Assembly: GCA_963841905.1 (NCBI GenBank)
Contig: CAWJEM010000011.1
Span: forward strand, 4,064 to 68,063
DNA from: an uncultured Acidobacteriota bacterium
Lineage (GTDB): Bacteria > Acidobacteriota > Vicinamibacteria > Vicinamibacterales > UBA2999
Reading direction: 5' to 3'
DNA: 64,000 nucleotides
The position numbers and the translations under genes are program-made. Below are positions 1,581 through 63,919 of the stretch, piece by piece; the stretch's first letter is position 1; each line of letters opens with the position of its first letter. The notes beneath the pieces are model-generated. The model worked only from the letters and a program-made list of their open reading frames with translations, was not told where the DNA came from and searched no databases.

Positions 1581-1628
1581 GGGCGAAGGGCACTGGGCAT
1601 AGGGCGTAGGGAGGGCTAAGGCCAGAGG
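1581..1628. repeat. Word array W-A: GGGC-type heptamers on the plus strand (GGGCGAA GGGCACT GGGCATA GGGCGTA GGGA GGGCTAA..). Single-armed.
   Basis: Read directly. G3 tracts start at 1581, 1588, 1595, 1602, 1609 and 1613 with period 7. It lies between the TonB-like gene and actA. No complementary arm occurs within 200 nt. Confidence 0.85.
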
Positions 1629-1743
1629 GACCACCTCATCTTGATGAAGGCAACCACTTGTCGCGGGAAGGGTGAGGTTCCGGACGGCCAGCGGTGGAGG
1701 GCCAGCGACCAACCGAACTGCAGGTCCACGCTGTTCGAAGGAT

Positions 1744-1770
1744 CGGCCGGGGCCACCAGGGCCCCGGCCG
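1744..1770 (-). terminator. GC-rich hairpin downstream of the TonB-like gene (11-bp perfect stem, 5-nt loop, no U-tract)
   Basis: CGGCCGGGGCC-ACCAG-GGCCCCGGCCG, located 32 nt after the stop codon at 1802-1804. Confidence 0.4.
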
Positions 1771-1801
1771 CGACTTCTCTATCCGAGCACGCTAACGAGA
1801 T

Positions 1802-4800
1802 CTAGAATCGGCTAACAACCGTCAACTGGAACGCCCGGGCCGGCTGCTGATTGACCATCAGCAGGAAGTTCGAGCTCCAGCTCTGGTACGCGCTGTTGTA
1901 GCTGTATTGGGTGTAGTTACCAGCGTTGAGCAGGTTGAAGAAGTTCCCCGCCACCTCCACCTGGTAGCGCTGATACCGCAGGGTCTTGCCGACCTTCAGG
2001 CCGATCGTCGTGATCAACGGTGACTGAACCTGACCTTCCCCGCGGTTGCTGAACACATAGCGATTGCGGGTCGCCAGCGGATTCGGTTGCGAGGACCCGT
2101 TAGCTAGTCGGACCGAGGGTGGCCCGTACCTGAGCACGTCTGGATCGTTGGCGGCCAGCTGATACAACGGCGATCCCGACCAGGGCCCGGCCTGGAACGT
2201 GGCGCTGGCGGCCACGTTGATGTCCCAGGGAGCCTGCCAGACGCCGCCGAGGTTGCCGCGATACTTCATCCATGTCGGGCCGTAGCTCAGGGCATTGCCC
2301 GTGTCAGGGAGCGAGTTCTCGTCGTTGTTGCCGCGCGGCATGTAGAGATTGGCGTCGTTGGCGAAGTGGTTCGGCTGCACGAAGCGGGCCGGGTCGGTCG
2401 GGTTCCACGTGCCGTCGATCTTGTGCCACTGCCGGGTGAAGCCGGCAATCAATTGGAAGCCCCGCGACATGTTCTTTGTCATGGTCAGCTCCAGCGCTTG
2501 GTACTTGAGCTGACTCCACGTGTTGTTCGTCTGCTGGAAGACGATCCCCTGGTTCGGGTCGACCCGTCCAAAACCCCCGAACGGCTGGCCCGGTCCATCG
2601 GGATAGAAGCCGTTGATGTCGATTCTCGCCCACGTGTCCTTGTACGCGCGGTTGATGTACGCCACATCCAGACCGATTTGCCACCCGAACTGCCGCCGGT
2701 ATCCCACGATGAACTCGTCGACGTACGGCTGATGCAGGTCGGGCGCGATCTGCTGCGCGGCCACGGCAGTCGATGTCGCCGGCAGGAGTTGGATCTCACC
2801 TGCCTCCCCAAACACTCCGTCGAGGTCGTTGTCGTACTCTCGTCGGAACGAAACCGTGTCGTCCGCGCCGAAGATGGTGACCCCGTCTCGTCCCATGACC
2901 TGTTCGCCCATTCGCGCGTAGCTGGCGCGCAGAACGTTCGTGGCATCCTGCGTCAGGAGATAGGTCGCTCCCACTCGCGGCTGCACCGCCCAGGATTTCT
3001 GGCGCGTGATGCCCTTGACCTCGTCAACACGCTTCACGTAGTCGAAGCGCATGCCGAAATTGGCGGTCAGGCGGGCGTCCGGCTTCCAGCTGTCCTGCAG
3101 GTAGAACGCGTAGTTGCTGTCGCGCGCCTGCCGAGTCTGCAGGCTAACGGGATCGGCGTAGTCACGCCGATACGGCACGGTGCCGAGCGAGGGATTGTTG
3201 ACATCGACGACCGTCTGGTATTCGCGGAAGAACCCGTTGTTGACGTACTCCCTCCGCTGGTCGTAGATGTTCTGCGGTTCGAGGAAGAACCCTGTGGCGA
3301 ACTCGTGCGATCCGATCCAGCCTGCCTTGTAGTACGTCGCATCGCCGCGAATCAGAGACAGCGACGCCGGCACGAAGGTTCGCGTCGGTCAGGTTCCCGC
3401 CCTCGAGGATGAGCGAGTTGCCCGTGATGAAACCGCTCGAGATGAGCGTGCCGTCGTAGATAACGATGTTCGGTCCCTGGGCGTCGAACCCGAACGCGTC
3501 GTAGGTGTCGTTGTCGTTGCCGCTCTTGTTGTTGTAGCCGGCCGAGAACGTCGTCGTCATTCTGTCGCCCCACGTCGACGTGATCTTGGCGCTGTAGACG
3601 TTGCCGCCATTCGAGTACACGTTGATGGGATCGAAGTAGTACTGCCAGTTGCTCTGGCCGTGCGTGCGGTCGCGCTGGAAGAACCCCGACAACTCGTGGG
3701 TGGCTCCGAGACGCGAGGTGACCTTCACATATGGCTGGTATCCCTTGATCTGCTGGGGGAACAAGTCTGTGCCGGGATAGTAACTCTGGATGTCGTTGAC
3801 GTTTTTCGAGTTCCGGCTGATCTGAGTCTCGACGGCTGACTTGCGGAACGAGGCGAAGAACCAGACCTTGTCCTTCATGATCGGCCCGCCGAACGAGCCG
3901 TCGAACTGACCGATGTCGGCCTGCACGGGCGTGCCGCCGGTTGTCGTGCATTCCAGGTTCGGGCAGGTTGAATGCTGGGCGAGCGGCGTCCCCGAGAGGT
4001 CGTAAACGGTCTTGTGGTGGGTGTTGTCGTGGTCCCAGCGGAGCGGCTGGTATGCGTACCCGGCGGTCCCTCTGAACGACGTTGCCGCCGCTCTTGGTGA
4101 TCACGTTGATCCCCAGACCGGTGCCCATCGGCGTGGACGCGTCGGACCCGCCCGTCTTGACGTGAATGTCCTGAATCATGTCCGACCCCATCTGCACGTA
4201 GGTGAGCTGGAAGTCGTTGTAGTTGCCCGCCTGCATGCCTTCGAGCTGCACGACGTGGGCGAAGTGTTCCGTGGCGTGCCCGAAGTACACCGATCGCCCG
4301 CTGCCGTCGTCGAAGGGTCTCGAGTGGACGCCAGGCGTCTGCTCGAGGAAGTCAGTCCAGTTCTTCCGGGCGGCAAGCGGCATCTGCTTCTGGAACTCGC
4401 CGTCGATGTTCAGTACGTTGCCGGGCTTGCTGACCTCCAGCATGGGCGAATCGCCCGAGACCGTGATGGTCTCGGCCAGTGTGCCGATCGCCATGACGAT
4501 GTCGACCTGAAAGTTCACGGCCGCGCGCAGCAGAATCCCCTTGCGTTCGTATGCCGAGAACCCCGGGAGCTCTGCGCTGACGGTGTACTCACCCGGGGGC
4601 AAGTTGATCAGACGGTAGTAGCCCGTCTCATCGGTGACGCCAGTTGCCGGCGTGATCATGTCGGGGCTTGTCGCGGTGACCGTGACACCCGGCAGCACTC
4701 CACCCTGTGCATCTTTGACGAAGCCTCGCAGGCTGCTGCCTGTGCTCTGCGCCTCTGCAAAGAACACGCTCGCATTCAATACAACGAGCAGGCAAATCCC

Positions 4801-4821
4801 GAATCGCGTAACACCTCTCAT
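1802..4821 (-). pseudogene. TonB-dependent-receptor-like outer-membrane protein with an N-terminal CarboxypepD_reg domain, interrupted by two +1 frame disruptions (~4077 and ~3355-3385)
   Basis: Three ORF-track pieces (3352..4842, 3162..3926, 1802..3373) join into one ~1000-aa protein. The first junction is ..INVITKSGGNV|FRGTAGYAYQPLRWDH..ADIGQFDGSFGG. The second is ..ILEGGNLTDANL|PASLSLIRGDATYYKAGW. The protein ends ..QLTVVSRF. A GGAGGA RBS precedes the ATG at 4821. An intact paralogue lies at 8796..11651. Confidence 0.8.
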
Positions 4822-4955
4822 GGCGATTCCTCCTGCCGACAAGACAGCAATCGGCCCGTGGGGGCCGCGGTTGACGAACTGACACCTCGGACTCGGACGA
4901 CGAAGCGAGATGCTAGTTTTCGCGGATGATAAGCGATCACTCGCACCGAATAAAG

Positions 4956-62327: not shown

Positions 62328-62340
62328 ACCGTCATGCGGG

Positions 62341-62358
62341 CCGAAGCGAAAGCTTCGG
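62341..62358 (+). other. Small stem-loop with a GAAA tetraloop in the atpG-atpD spacer
   Basis: CCGAAGC-GAAA-GCTTCGG, a 7-bp perfect stem. Confidence 0.5.
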
Positions 62359-62387
62359 ACTCGCGCGTGTTAGTTCGAGAGTTTGAT

Positions 62388-63839
62388 ATGGCGACAGCAA
62401 CAGCAACCGATCCAAAAGTCGGCCGGGTGATTCAGATCATCGGCCCGGTGGTGGACGTCGAGTACCAGGGCGGCTATCTACCGAACATTTACAACGCCAT
62501 TCGCATCACGGGCAACGTCGCCGGCGCGACCGTCGACATCGTGTGCGAGGTCCAGCAGCACCTCGGAGAGGGGCGCGTTCGGGCGGTGGCCATGAAACCG
62601 ACCGACGGGCTGCAGCGCGGGATGAGCGCAACCGATACCGGCGCGCCCATCTCCGTGCCGGTTGGCTCGGCGACGCTCGGGCGTGTGCTCAACGTGCTCG
62701 GCGAGCCGGTCGATTTTCCGGATCGGCCGGTCAACGCGACCGAGCGCTGGCCTATCCACCGCGCCGCGCCGACCCTGGAACAGCAGTCCACCGAGCTCAA
62801 GATGTTCGAGACCGGCATCAAGGTCATCGACCTGCTCGAGCCGTACCTCACCGGCGGCAAGATTGGCCTCTTTGGCGGCGCCGGCGTCGGCAAGACGGTC
62901 ATCATCATGGAGTTGATCCACAACATCGCTCTGAAGCACGGCGGGGTGTCGGTATTCGGCGGTGTCGGCGAACGCACGCGCGAAGGCAACGACCTGTGGC
63001 TCGAGTTCCAGGAGTCGGGCGTGATCGACATCAAGGACCCGTCGAAGTCGCGCGCAGCGCTCGTGTACGGACAGATGACGGAACCGCCTGGCGCCCGCCA
63101 GCGTGTTGGTTTGTCGGCGCTGACGGTCGCCGAGTACTTCCGCGATGCCGAAGGCAAGGACGTCCTGCTGTTCATCGACAACATCTTTCGCTTCACGCAG
63201 GCGGGCTCTGAGGTGTCAGCGCTGCTTGGTCGCATGCCGAGCGCGGTCGGCTATCAGCCGACGCTGCTGACCGAGATGGGCGAGCTGCAGGAGCGCATCA
63301 CGTCGACCAAGAAGGGCTCGATCACGTCGGTGCAGGCGATTTATGTGCCTGCCGATGACTACACCGATCCGGCGCCGGCGACAACCTTTGCACACCTCGA
63401 CGCGACGACGAACCTGTCGCGGCAGATCGCCGAGCTGGGGATCTACCCAGCCGTTGATCCGCTGGCGTCGACCTCACGCATTCTCGATCCGCGCGTGCTG
63501 GGCGATGAGCACTACAACGTCGCGCGTCAGGTGAAGCAGATTCTGCAGCGCTACAAGGACCTCCAGGACATCATCGCGATTCTGGGCATCGACGAGCTCT
63601 CCGAAGAAGACAAGCTCACGGTTTCGCGGGCGCGCAAGATTCAGCGCTTTCTATCGCAGCCCTTCTTCGTGGCCTCGCAATTCACCGGCCGCGAAGGCAA
63701 GTACGTGTCGATTGCCGATACCATCAAGGGTTTCAAGGAAATCGCGGAAGGCAAGCACGACGGCATTCCCGAGCAGGCGTTCTACCTGCAGGGCACGATC
63801 GAGGAAGCGTTGGAAAACGCGAAAACATTAAAGCAGTAG
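62388..63839 (+). CDS. atpD: F0F1 ATP synthase subunit beta
   Basis: Starts [26 protein letters not shown] at 62388. The P-loop GGAGVGKT is present. Confidence 0.95.
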
Positions 63840-63848
63840 TAACGGACA

Positions 63849-63919
63849 GGCCTCAGAGACACAGAGTCTCAGAGAACAGGAAATGAAGAGAAGCTCGGAG
63901 ATTCTGAGCCTCTGAGGCC
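63849..63919. repeat. Word array W-O: CAGAG-type hairpin in the atpD-atpC spacer
   Basis: The outer 10-bp perfect stem is GGCCTCAGAG (63849-63858) with CTCTGAGGCC (63910-63919). An internal pair GAGAC..GTCTC is also present. Confidence 0.85.

Follow-up and report, generated by a model that had tools for sequence, protein, structure and literature searches.

The window, a 64,000-nt stretch of DNA, is the origin region of a Vicinamibacterales-like soil acidobacterium, and the spacers between its genes hold arrays of short reiterated words that amount to ~1.4 kb, ~20% of its non-coding DNA. Arrays were detected with Tandem Repeats Finder and a position-agnostic 5-mer chain scan, genes were called by a crude, GC3-based choice of ORFs and identified by Pfam, and expected array counts came from second-order Markov simulations. 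All 16 array loci of a preliminary description of this DNA were found, with coordinates right to within a few bases, and, of the 34 spacers that separate called genes by 30 nt or more, 16 contain arrays. The chain scan returned six period-7 and 11 period-8 arrays where 0.15 and 0.10 are expected (17 versus ~0.25 in total), other periods (5, 6, and 9–18) giving counts of 0–4 each; Tandem Repeats Finder gives the same word periods of 7 or 8 that had been described. Pfam likewise bore out the contexts glmU–glmS, gyrB–gyrA, dnaN–gyrB, parA–parB, atpH–atpA, and atpA–atpG and added glmS–pcrA/uvrD, yidC–jag, and rsmG–parA; two convergent pairs and one divergent pair also flank arrays, as noted before. 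The loci had been characterized as mostly inverted arms, which holds for 12 of the 16; four (described as starting at 1581, 29081, 49925, and 59719) are one-armed. The z-scores given below compare folds of array spacers with dinucleotide shuffles on both strands.

Four octamer hairpins share the core GTTCC/GGAAC, with GTTCC 5′ of GGAAC in 4/4 window loci and in 25/27 metagenome cases, a strand-symmetric arrangement. At 7179–7309, between a divergent TPR/PMT_2 gene and a CapA-like gene, seven GTTCC-ARR units (7180–7232) and six YYT-GGAAC units (7262–7309) enclose a 33-nt loop; the 40-nt arms are 85% complementary, and the MFE of −74 compares with −39 for shuffles (z −9.1). In strain L207 the left arm is two units shorter and the right arm two units longer, around the same loop. 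The hairpin at 8681–8792 (GTTCC ×6, GGAAC ×5; z −5.5 and −7.7) lies where the CapA-like and TonB-dependent receptor genes converge, its left arm forming the last seven CapA codons, and a GGGAGATCA/TGATCTCCC hairpin takes its place in L208–L210. That at 13546–13663 (GTTCC ×6, GGAAC ×7; z −5.0 and −5.5) begins 3 nt past an amidohydrolase stop; it is almost fully deleted in L207 and lacks its arms in L208, and an orthologous GGAAC hairpin is kept in L209 and L210. As persistence here spans lineages of only 79% DNA identity, some arrays are long-lived. The parA–parB spacer (55692–55835; z −3.3 and −4.4) holds GTTCC ×3 and TGGAACYY ×11, with a higher-order period of 24 nt and the Shine–Dalgarno-like AAAGGTGA outside the array. 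Judged by eye, TGGAAC is invariant across the 11 units at 55745–55835. Arm copies number 3+11 in the window, 4+7 in L001, and 1+5 in L003, and the sequence is different in L002.

Three further octamer hairpins are built on CAGAG: CAGAG ×3/CTCTG ×3 in the dnaN–gyrB spacer (44208–44275; z −4.3 and −5.0), CAGAG ×3/CTGAG-CTCTG ×3–4 in the atpA–atpG spacer (61375–61443; z −3.6 and −5.4), and CAGAG ×3/CTGAG ×3 downstream of atpD (63849–63919; z −4.8 and −6.3). The atpA–atpG spacer bears an array in 14 of 44 relatives; the one downstream of atpD carries a CACGSAAG hairpin in L038 and measures 0–12 nt in L005–L007. Among the heptamer hairpins, that of glmU–glmS (33813–33934; z −3.9 and −2.9) has CAAAGT-type ×5 and ACTTGTA ×4 arms around a 55-nt loop, the left arm forming the last 17 glmU codons and the right arm stopping 9 nt before the glmS ATG. 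The (G)GCCAGTG ×4/CCACTGA-CCACCGA ×5 hairpin of the glmS–pcrA/uvrD spacer (35790–35860; z −6.0 and −5.5) ends 5 nt ahead of the helicase ATG. AGGGCNN ×7/NNGCCCT ×4 fills the gyrB–gyrA spacer (41466–41567; z −6.3 and −6.3), adjoining the gyrB stop and leaving 6 nt to the gyrA ATG. Between convergent genes, CACAAAG/CACGAAG ×2 faces CTTCGTGA ×3 (38143–38200), directly followed by a period-11 array, TCGTGGCTACG ×3.4 (38194–38230); the fold of 38143–38230 has z −2.2 and −5.3. The rsmG–parA spacer holds a composite hairpin (54579–54713; z −2.9 and −5.7) of four to five GGGC heptamers (54579–54612), a period-13 array, GGCACAACGAAAC ×2.9 (54605–54641), and CCTGCGC ×7.6 with 100% matches (54661–54713); L001 and L003 have just one to three CCTGCGC units there, between flanks that are 95–97% identical.

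The one-armed locus at 1581–1628, five to six GGGCNNN heptamers, lies between cytochrome c7-like and TonB-dependent receptor genes, both on the − strand; its fold does not stand out from shuffles (z −1.2 and +0.4), and it is conserved with small changes in L207. A short, weakly folding array, CACGAAG ×3 with period 8–9 (29069–29104), separates convergent nucleotidyl-transferase and zinc-ribbon genes. CCCAAT-type words on the + strand, C-rich, G-poor, and spaced by 8 or 13, lie in the yidC–jag spacer (49925–50027) and reach the jag start with no fold (z +0.6); this spacer is 174–177 nt long in the window and L003 and 63 nt, with a clean CAATCACC ×4, in L001. In the jag–mnmE spacer, a single-unit hairpin, GGCACGGAA-loop-TTCCGTGCC (50474–50499), is the contracted form of a 3+3-unit CACGAAG/CTTCGTG hairpin found at the same site in L003. 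At the atpH–atpA junction, abutting direct heptamer arrays on the + strand (59718–59763), CAGTGAT ×3.6 and CAGGGCG ×3.4, have other copy numbers in L001 and L003 and are represented by GGTGGCN in L002. The CAGTGAT array encodes the last four atpH codons and the stop; the ancestral atpH end is ...MIENA*, as in L005 and L010. Such clipping of gene ends had been described and is confirmed here, as are spurious N-terminal extensions created by arrays (e.g., LIEPWNSGTLEPWN and LELWNLGT).

On both strands, 11 or 12 of the 16 loci fold far more stably than their dinucleotide shuffles (z −3 to −9), and pairing is possible in several registers, as proposed, with the arm at 55688–55715 fitting six. Shuffling the unit order within arms left the fold unweakened in 10/10 loci, which speaks for arms that are independent of each other. 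G-quadruplex formation by the GGGC-type arrays only, acting on transcription or translation in the manner of Xanthomonas GGGAATC or Nostoc GGGGAYT-like repeats, would agree with the placement of canonical G3-L1-7 G4 motifs: the window has seven, and five of them lie in array 1581 (at 1581–1615) and, on both strands, in arrays 41466 and 54579. The Xanthomonas repeats are also heptamers, often in inverted pairs (PMC4692102). We regard it as highly improbable: most families of the window (GGAAC, CAGAG, CACGAAG, CCAGTG, CAAAGT, and CCCAAT) are built by the same rule without being able to form G4, and since the G-rich arm of a paired array faces its own C-rich complement, the hairpin is favored over the G4.

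The comparison sample comprised 1.09 Mb of sequence from ~59 related genomes, all loci being drawn from two chromosomal neighborhoods. There, the 13% of sequence that counts as intergenic holds 132 of 188 arrays, with no more than 23 deep within ORFs, an intergenic enrichment of at least 16-fold; with the excess over Markov expectation in the window, this upholds the earlier view of nonrandom, intergenic arrays, which prove widespread in the relatives rather than confined to the window or equally frequent in coding sequence. Co-directional spacers bear arrays more often than divergent ones (107/485 versus 6/80; Fisher p = 0.0015), and convergent spacers are also occupied; arrays are probably tolerated mainly where a promoter is not required. 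One-armed arrays are about as frequent as paired ones across the clade, and 52 of 73 paired arrays have a purine-rich 5′ arm.

These placements bear on the possibility that the arrays are selected RNA elements: terminators or attenuators lacking U-tracts, 3′-end stabilizers, or translation-coupling devices, the roles proposed for cyanobacterial STRR hairpins (PMC2670836). Strong predicted stem-loops, the occupation of co-directional and convergent spacers, the absence of enrichment for canonical terminators in the window, and a purine-rich 5′ arm in a strand-symmetric layout, as in a bidirectional terminator, are consistent with such roles. In addition, 5′ arms start at or within the stop codon of the preceding gene, and 5–12 nt separate the 3′ arms from the glmS, pcrA, and gyrA starts; however, this proximity would be automatic for an array grown inside an originally short spacer. 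Moreover, fold energy shows no sense-strand advantage (13 versus 20 spacers, p = 0.29), mirrored linker positions between arms were not found, so that the linkers are not co-adapted, and no U-tract lies 3′ of the hairpins at the window loci, as already reported; these three features thus give no evidence of RNA-level selection. Occurrence per operon junction is also sporadic, many relatives being nearly spacer-free there, and one-armed arrays are common. Selected RNA elements are therefore quite unlikely as a general explanation. Indeed, given the missing sense-strand bias, the unmirrored linkers, and the patchy presence at orthologous spacers, none of the functional ideas put forward earlier (terminator or stabilizer, cruciform, repeat-reading protein) found positive support.

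At eight orthologous spacers, arrays occur in 12–32% of 38–60 genomes each. Array-free medians at yidC–jag, parA–parB, atpH–atpA, atpA–atpG, and atpG–atpD are 6–25 nt (6 nt at atpA–atpG) versus 57–90 nt with arrays, and the orthologous spacers of other relatives measure only 0–25 nt. Strains 93–99% identical differ in whole units, arm deletions, and word family; flanks are 93–100% identical at loci differing by whole units, array-free neighboring spacers remain collinear, and one spacer can carry different word families in different lineages. The copy-number changes looked for between close strains are thus seen. From these strain differences and the 0–25-nt spacers elsewhere it follows that the arrays are dispensable, turn over quickly, and have grown in place, the last presumably by slippage. 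The slippage hypothesis gains support from the whole-unit differences, from an array expanded to 7.6 perfect copies, and from higher-order periodicity (14, 16, and 24; Tandem Repeats Finder) in window arrays.

The architecture had been thought to fit no described class, which is wrong. Cyanobacterial STRR heptamer hairpins sit within operons, in the hupS–hupL spacer (PMC2670836); in Xanthomonas, arrays of the heptamer GGGAATC form ~70 inverted convergent pairs, with repeat type preserved among species as copy number varies (PMC4692102); and the paired opposite-strand sites of Geobacter metallireducens, built of 3–5 tandem 7–9-nt repeats, fall into three classes (PMC2700814). The present arrays add a member to this known kind of repeat. 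Like the Xanthomonas repeats, the present arrays include heptamers in inverted pairs, although most families here are not G4-capable.

On balance, we consider the arrays to be probably STRR-type intergenic repeat hairpins, a lineage-wide, nonessential, rapidly turning-over, satellite-like DNA in transcribed gaps of Vicinamibacterales-like Acidobacteriota. A 7–9-nt word would multiply at its site through replication slippage or unequal exchange, in steps of a single unit or a block of two to three, and the complementary word across a unique loop would do so independently, leaving the arms with only the core word in common and with copy numbers free to differ. Over the time that strains take to diverge, arrays would expand, contract, lose their center, or give way to another word family. 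Once single-stranded, the arms could form long, imperfect stem-loops in many registers, with candidate generic effects as a 3′ exonuclease barrier, in pausing or partial termination, or in coupling a downstream start to upstream translation. Expression, if affected at all, would probably be so in a generic, secondary way, and a site-specific conserved function is unlikely, though some sites may have a real regulatory role. Slippage alone does not predict the sharp 7–9-nt window, nor does it account for a core shared by unlinked spacers or for the fixed, strand-symmetric arm order.

Dispersal would address the shared cores. Short hairpin seeds of mobile or otherwise dispersed palindromes (REP/REPIN or MITE-like) would be copied in trans to other spacers, by an enzyme like the Y1/RAYT-type transposases or by an IS recognizing the words, and then expand locally. 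The same 5-nt core is found at three to four unlinked spacers with unrelated loops and flanks, and the window has 17 same-core locus pairs where random 5-mers would give ~0.23. Word sets are specific to each genome, families keep a constant arm order, and arrays were gained independently in spacers 0–20 nt long in relatives. Of the GGAAC arrays in short-read metagenome contigs, 22/94 lie near contig ends, as expected for multi-copy dispersed repeats, and in G. metallireducens ISGme8 and ISGme9 keep a constant distance to paired octamer sites (PMC2700814). However, the four GGAAC loci and their orthologues have no conserved termini, target-site duplications, or shared loops, array length and copy number are not conserved, and no transposase, integrase, or Y1 domain occurs among the ~49 window genes. 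REPs carry a GTAG or CGTC tag (PMC3733652), which is missing from most words here. The earlier statements that the arrays are not copies of one REP consensus and are not CRISPR are supported; they have neither unique spacers nor a fixed repeat. There are several cores (at least seven in the 64-kb window, dozens in the clade), but to call the families "unrelated" is too strong, as they grade by one- to two-base steps: CACAGAG, CACGGAG, CACGAAG, and CACGGAA(C) are linked, as are CAGTGAT, CAGGGAT, and CAGGGCG, with intermediates in relatives. Gradation by single substitutions fits divergence in place, and dispersal is possible but unlikely. Contig breaks also bear on an artefact of assembling or sequencing metagenome-assembled genomes: short-read contigs frequently break at arrays, and some related contigs are error-prone long-read assemblies with fragmented genes. 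We give this next to no credence, as the same loci and words recur in many independent assemblies of different technologies, the arrays are far shorter than reads, and they respect gene boundaries.

Unit lengths in the relatives are confined to 7, 8, and 9 nt (119, 73, and 52 arrays), lengths of 4–6 and 10–12 being almost empty; the rule that periods are never a multiple of three thus holds in the window but fails in relatives, which have intergenic period-9 arrays. So sharp a window suggests a molecular ruler, as would arise on platforms for an oligomeric protein binding one word per subunit; candidates are IHF/HU-type nucleoid proteins on DNA and ring- or filament-forming RNA binders of the TRAP, HutP, Csp, or S1 style. 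Such platforms are very unlikely, since numerous specific proteins would be required for so many cores, one word family can replace another at a given spacer, and the arrays are dispensable; variable positions cluster significantly in 1/18 arrays by a position-agnostic, under-powered test, against the impression by eye that a conserved 5–6-nt core alternates with variable linkers. There are precedents in the binding proposed for IHF/HU at the Geobacter sites (PMC2700814) and for S1, Csp, and CsrA at Beggiatoa repeats (PMC4679880), and the sense strand of one-armed arrays is more often purine-rich (56 versus 32).

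The window, with a G+C content of 62% over 64 kb, is the chromosomal origin-of-replication region of a bacterium. By Pfam assignment, the minus strand carries dnaA, dnaN, gyrB, and gyrA, and the plus strand carries rnpA, yidC, jag, mnmE, mnmG, rsmG, parA, parB, and a selD-like gene, together with the atp operon, comprising two atpF-like genes (ATP-synthase B subunits), atpH, atpA, atpG, and atpD. Leftward lie glmU, glmS, a UvrD/PcrA helicase gene, serS, a CapA-like gene, and polysaccharide-export genes, and TonB-dependent receptors with CarboxypepD_reg domains are also found in the left part of the window. 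The nearest relatives of ParB are 98–99%, then 85%, and then ∼70% identical and come from MAGs labelled Acidobacteriota and Vicinamibacterales, and CapA-like homologues with 80–81% identity carry the name Vicinamibacterales. Exact-sequence look-ups with the ParB, DnaN, and GlmS proteins of the window matched no recorded entry.

Tandem arrays of 7–8-nt words occur at all 16 spacer loci listed in the preliminary description (16/16), and Tandem Repeats Finder (TRF) assigns them a period of 7 or 8. Together, TRF and a lag scan give 3–11 copies per array. The lag scan, which asks solely for recurrence of a 5-mer at a fixed lag and takes second-order Markov simulations as background, found 6 arrays in the window at lag 7 (0.15 in simulations) and 11 at lag 8 (0.10 in simulations), with 0–4 at each of lags 5, 6, and 9–18. 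Mapping genes simply by GC3 leaves 34 spacers of 30 nt or more, of which 16 contain arrays, and the sole clearly coding match in the window is a weak CCCTG ×3 in mnmG. Within the 64 kb, GGAAC words are present at four loci, GGGC words at four, and CAGAG words at three. The arrays also clip the 3′ ends of genes (17 codons of glmU, 7 of the CapA-like gene, and 4 of atpH) and produce spurious N-terminal extensions, both as had been noted before. A period-12 repeat, TCGACTCGCTCT ×3.1 at 29142–29178, lies in frame within a zinc-ribbon-domain ORF (29110–29490, minus strand) and is thus coding, in contrast to the arrays of period 7 or 8.

At 12 of the 16 loci the arrays form inverted pairs, with an array of the complementary word located beyond a unique loop. 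On both strands, between 11 and all 12 of these paired loci fold much better than their dinucleotide-shuffled counterparts, with z scores of −3 to −9 (for 7179–7309, −74 versus −39 kcal/mol), and the remaining four, one-armed, loci have no fold. One arm can fit its partner in many registers, in agreement with the pairing proposed earlier. The lack of a U-tract after the hairpins was likewise confirmed: their tails contain 0–6 T per 10 nt, mostly three or fewer, and their loops span 14–88 nt. They are not canonical intrinsic terminators, which combine a G+C-rich stem and a short loop with a following U-tract; a terminator scan flagged no array hairpin, and sites resembling terminators show no enrichment in the window. 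A canonical promoter scan of the window also showed no enrichment and flagged no array. Rfam searches, at gathering thresholds and at E ≤ 1, returned nothing for the arrays, only tRNA-Ser and chance microRNA-like matches on two hairpins. The GGGC-type arrays at 1581, 41467, and 54579, with their C-rich partners, carry the G4 motif (four or more G3 tracts separated by loops of 1–7 nt), whereas the other families do not. Longer-period tandem arrays in or next to two hairpins, with periods of 11 (TCGTGGCTACG ×3.4, 38194–38230) and 13 (GGCACAACGAAAC ×2.9, 54605–54641), make these loci composites of several repeat types.

The arrays are not confined to the window but occur throughout a set of Vicinamibacterales-like sequence (the window and 59 related loci, 1.09 Mb). 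TRF identified 119, 73, and 52 arrays with periods of 7, 8, and 9, respectively, in this set and almost none with periods of 4–6 and 10–12; 0.32 Mb from distant taxa yielded 3, 2, and 1 arrays at periods 7, 8, and 9. Because 132 of 188 period-7/8 arrays lie in the 13% of clade sequence called intergenic, and at most 23 lie well within ORFs, several of which are over-called, intergenic enrichment in this set is at least 16-fold. Arrays are present in 107 of 485 co-directional spacers compared with 6 of 80 divergent spacers (p = 0.0015), and ∼40% of arrays in the wider clade have an inverted partner. Each genome reuses words of its own, such as AGGGATC in locus L005, TTCTTG in L049, GTAGCC in L019, and the period-9 CACGAAGGA in L032, and relatives repeat their own words at 4–6 loci per 20 kb. 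In another relative, L006, the atpA–atpG spacer (15481–15997) measures 517 nt, compared with 2–20 nt in other relatives, and consists almost entirely of the units AGAACTA, GGAACGAC, and GGAACAC facing GTTCTCA and GTTCTTC.

Four TGGAACYY units were found in at least 120 metagenome stretches, on contigs of 34–69% G+C, by a scan with this single word and no control word. Among the matches listed, 48 of 80 TGGAACYY contigs also contain period-7–9 arrays of other words. The occurrence in metagenomes thus indicates that the syndrome is wider than the Vicinamibacterales-like clade. As to whether TGGAACYY itself is special, viral contigs gave 4 matches versus 2 for a permuted-core control, numbers too small to decide. 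NCBIfam assignments on the low-G+C metagenome contigs reveal housekeeping genes only and were uninformative as to their taxonomy. Many short-read contigs among the matches listed (L081–L160) terminate exactly within the TGGAACYY array. Contigs of 39–50% G+C harbor very long arrays of other 7–8-nt words, for example AAGACAA ×32 (L131) and TACAGTCC ×20 (L154); one contig, L159, with CCCTAAA-type telomere-like repeats, is probably eukaryotic.

Comparison of orthologous spacers between strains, the check suggested at the outset, revealed changes in copy number. The related loci L001, L003, and L207, with flanks 93–100% identical, differ at almost every array-bearing spacer, and their array-free spacers are collinear. 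The parA–parB spacer, for example, contains 3+11, 4+7, or 1+5 units, the CCTGCGC arm between rsmG and parA has 7.6 perfect copies in the window and 1–3 in other strains, and the yidC–jag spacer is 174 nt in one strain versus 63 nt in another. In L207 the hairpin upstream of the CapA-like gene has lost two units from its left arm and gained two in its right around the same loop, and the amidohydrolase hairpin is nearly gone. The small GGCACGGAA/TTCCGTGCC hairpin between jag and mnmE in the window corresponds to a 3+3-unit CACGAAG/CTTCGTG hairpin in L003. Higher-order periods of 14, 16, and 24 detected by TRF within arrays show that blocks of two or three units have been duplicated. These differences indicate that the arrays are amplified and deleted in place, and the whole-unit changes between strains support the slippage that had been suggested. 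Many genes in L208 and L207 are fragmented (a TonB-dependent receptor, an amidohydrolase, and an enoyl-CoA hydratase among them), which points to assembly indel errors, so that single-base differences are untrustworthy and whole-unit differences usable. A further observation in L207, where CapA is 99% identical, is an 82-nt insertion at 16786–16893 (window 14232–14257) with its own hairpin, GCGAAGCGGAGC...GGCGGAGCTTCGC, and no tandem array. The orthologous spacer is 25–28 nt in the window and three other relatives, and the insertion may be a small mobile element.

Relatives with ∼80–85% identity often contain a different word family in the orthologous spacer: GGGAGATCA/TGATCTCCC replaces GGAAC after the CapA-like gene, and GGTGGCN stands in place of CAGTGAT after atpH. 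The GGAAC hairpin after the amidohydrolase gene, by comparison, is common to lineages with just 79% DNA identity, yet a genome 95% identical to one carrier lineage lacks it. Because array occupancy is 12–32% at each of eight orthologous spacers (38–60 genomes) and array-free spacers are short, the arrays are dispensable, having been added to spacers that were short at first, in independent gains that involved different words; at yidC–jag, parA–parB, atpH–atpA, atpA–atpG, and atpG–atpD, median lengths are 6–25 nt when free of arrays versus 57–90 nt with them. Several of the word families are connected to one another through one-base changes, intermediates being present in relatives (CACAGAGA, CACGGAGA, CACGAAGG, and CACGGAAC), and CAGTGAT, CAGGGAT, and CAGGGCG make up a second series linked in the same way. 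Such graded families fit divergence within arrays.

We found no positive evidence for selection at the RNA level. In a G·U-wobble test, sense RNA folded more stably than antisense RNA in 13 of 33 paired-array spacers, showing no bias. Shuffling the order of units within arms did not weaken the fold at any of ten loci, the real order being no better. The core word is therefore all that the arms have in common, and they were not kept mirrored through selection or template-switch correction. Quasipalindrome correction (PMC7202029), which would account for the match between arms, was dropped for this reason, as unit-shuffled arms fold equally well. Deamination of methylcytosine was considered as the source of the linkers, but it is not general: core-versus-linker clustering of variable positions was significant in 1 of 18 arrays by a position-agnostic test, and transitions and transversions in the arrays stand at 64:53. 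The 5′ arm begins at the upstream stop codon or within it, and the 3′ arm terminates 5–12 nt before the starts of glmS, pcrA, and gyrA. This placement would allow hairpin-mediated translational coupling, and it also arises automatically from growth within a short spacer. Any effect of the arrays on expression is probably generic. The starts of the essential genes pcrA/uvrD (35866), gyrA (41459), and glmS (33944) have no recognisable Shine-Dalgarno sequence, and with a stable 3′ arm ending just 5–9 nt upstream of each of them, initiation has to open the hairpin or rely on translation from upstream.

Several known classes of element resemble the arrays. REPs are single 20–40-nt imperfect palindromes with one consensus per family and a GTAG/CGTC tag, and the GTAG type has a cognate RAYT (PMC3733652). 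Like REP, BIME, and REPIN elements, the arrays are abundant palindromes outside genes, located in transcribed spacers and often paired in inverted orientation; they are rare between divergent genes, vary between strains, and have a fixed polarity within a family, and, by analogy, they may act as REP-like RNA hairpins. Unlike REPs, they have internal tandem periodicity and no consensus palindrome, just a 5-nt core being common to loci with unrelated loops and flanks, so that their earlier separation from REPs holds. The GTAG/CGTC tag is absent from the GGAAC, CAGAG, CACGAAG, CCAGTG, CAAAGT, and CCCAAT loci, with GTAG present solely within GTAGGGC words. No RAYT (Y1 transposase) gene is among the ∼49 genes of the window, which is part of a genome, RAYTs being single-copy genes. 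The exclusion of CRISPR also stands, as the units are 7–9 nt long and directly abut one another without spacers, in contrast to the constant 24–48-nt repeats and similarly long unique spacers of CRISPR. MITEs were rejected as well: no conserved termini or target-site duplications are present at the four GGAAC loci or at orthologous empty and filled sites, and length varies among strains.

The view that no described class fits proved wrong, since STRR, Xanthomonas, and Geobacter repeats share the same construction rule. The arrays are best seen as a very dense, multi-family addition to STRR-like intergenic short-word repeat hairpins, dispensable and hypervariable; the literature searched contains no account of such arrays in Acidobacteria. 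Intergenic short-word tandem arrays have been known in bacteria since 1990, and STRR of heterocystous cyanobacteria are described, in the account of Mazel et al. (1990) that PMC4692102 gives, as tandem, usually 7-nt words in several families. STRR can form hairpins; these are found in the hupS–hupL spacer of four cyanobacteria and were proposed to raise transcript stability or couple translation (PMC2670836). As in STRR, short words here are repeated head to tail and dispersed at many loci, in several families per genome, and they are noncoding and intergenic, including within operons, with inverted arrays that form hairpins. Unlike STRR, they belong to a high-G+C member of the Acidobacteriota, 8- and 9-nt units occur as often as 7-nt units, many more word families are found per genome stretch, and about half of the spacers in 64 kb are filled. 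Because the window is from Acidobacteriota/Vicinamibacterales rather than from the taxon that defines STRR, membership is by architecture, not homology.

Xanthomonas contains ∼185 intergenic GGGAATC arrays, ∼70 of them inverted convergent pairs that can form stem-loops or cruciforms, and their length varies from species to species, but their single or paired type is kept (Rehm et al. 2015, PMC4692102). Heptamer repeats are over-represented in many bacteria (PMC4692102). The arrays share intergenic heptamers and inverted pairs with Xanthomonas GGGAATC and Nostoc GGGGAYT, and the GGGC-type arrays are similarly G4-capable. In contrast to Xanthomonas, which has essentially one G-rich word, read as a G4, there are many families here, and most words cannot form a G4. 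TAACTGA direct repeats, with 169 sets of 2–6 copies, occur in marine Beggiatoaceae, Cyanobacteria, and Bacteroidetes (MacGregor 2015, PMC4679880). They too are abundant intergenic heptamers in operons with essential genes and near start codons, with a patchy distribution across phyla, but they comprise one word in nearly all direct orientation (one indirect repeat), whereas most arrays here are inverted pairs of many words.

Geobacter metallireducens has three species-specific classes of site, mostly opposite-strand pairs at variable distance (Aklujkar et al. 2009, PMC2700814), built of four octamers GTTGCTYN, three 8–9-mers TCTCCGTS[Y], or five heptamers MTYCTGA, with 16–49 copies per class; 49 copies of GGACCGG ×4 are also present. 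The sites, named 'putative global regulator binding sites', were found by BLAST as conserved and multi-copy, are fairly fixed in copy number, and are absent from G. sulfurreducens. Members of two IS families lie a fixed distance away from the class 1 sites, and the authors guessed that the sites bind IHF/HU (PMC2700814). Judging by the legends of Additional files 7–9 of that work, the arrays resemble these sites as tandem 7–9-nt repeats in opposite-strand pairs and several classes, but their copy number is highly variable, from 1 to 11 units. The class 2 word TCTCCGTS is the reverse complement of CACGGAGA, a word in relatives of the window, a match that may be chance (an estimated ∼0.04–0.15 per external word, with ∼170 distinct units).

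Slippage alone does not account for the sharp 7–9-nt unit window, nor for two further features. Identical 5-nt cores are found at 3–4 unlinked spacers with unrelated loops and flanks, giving 17 same-core pairs versus ∼0.23 expected. The arm order is fixed and strand-symmetric, with GTTCC lying 5′ of GGAAC in 4 of 4 cases in the window and by 25 to 2 among the metagenome matches listed. The 5′ arm is purine rich in 52 versus 21 pairs in the clade, which is significant but, as the pairs are non-independent, a trend, and the metagenome matches listed show no bias (14 versus 12). No transposase, integrase, or Y1 domain is encoded among the ∼49 window genes. Dedicated sequence-specific machinery that writes or reads the arrays with a built-in 7–9-nt ruler is an unlikely explanation, to which we nonetheless give a small chance because of the 7–9-nt window, the dispersal of cores, and the arm order. 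It might, for example, be an enzyme that recognises a core, makes staggered cuts there, and produces duplications by fill-in, or a protein of a mobile element responsible for both targeting and spreading the words. Such machinery would explain the sharp 7–9-nt window, the cores shared by unlinked loci, and the fixed, strand-symmetric arm order, and also like words in distant phyla, such as CACGGAGA (Geobacter class 2) and TGGAACYY (contigs of 34–69% G+C). If the 7–9-nt units and the common vocabulary do stem from a specific enzyme or a binding protein, this would add something new to the biology of bacterial genomes.

The present case is unusually dense, with about half of the spacers around a replication origin affected, including those within gyrB–gyrA, parAB, glmUS, and the atp operon, and, as many close relatives are already assembled, the gain, loss, and expansion of arrays and the replacement of words can be traced spacer by spacer. 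In practical terms, the arrays extend or clip annotated genes, create false ORFs, and break short-read assemblies, and they would be good strain-typing markers for an abundant, poorly cultured group of soil bacteria.

An apparent spacer at 56742–56932 is the 5′ portion of the SelD-like (AIRS-domain) gene, with its ATG at 56774, and is 77–100% conserved in relatives. The gene contains an in-frame TGA at 56825–56827, which is probably a selenocysteine codon because the translation ...MVSCAG*ASKLAPSELAQVL matches the N-terminal Cys/Sec motif of SelD.
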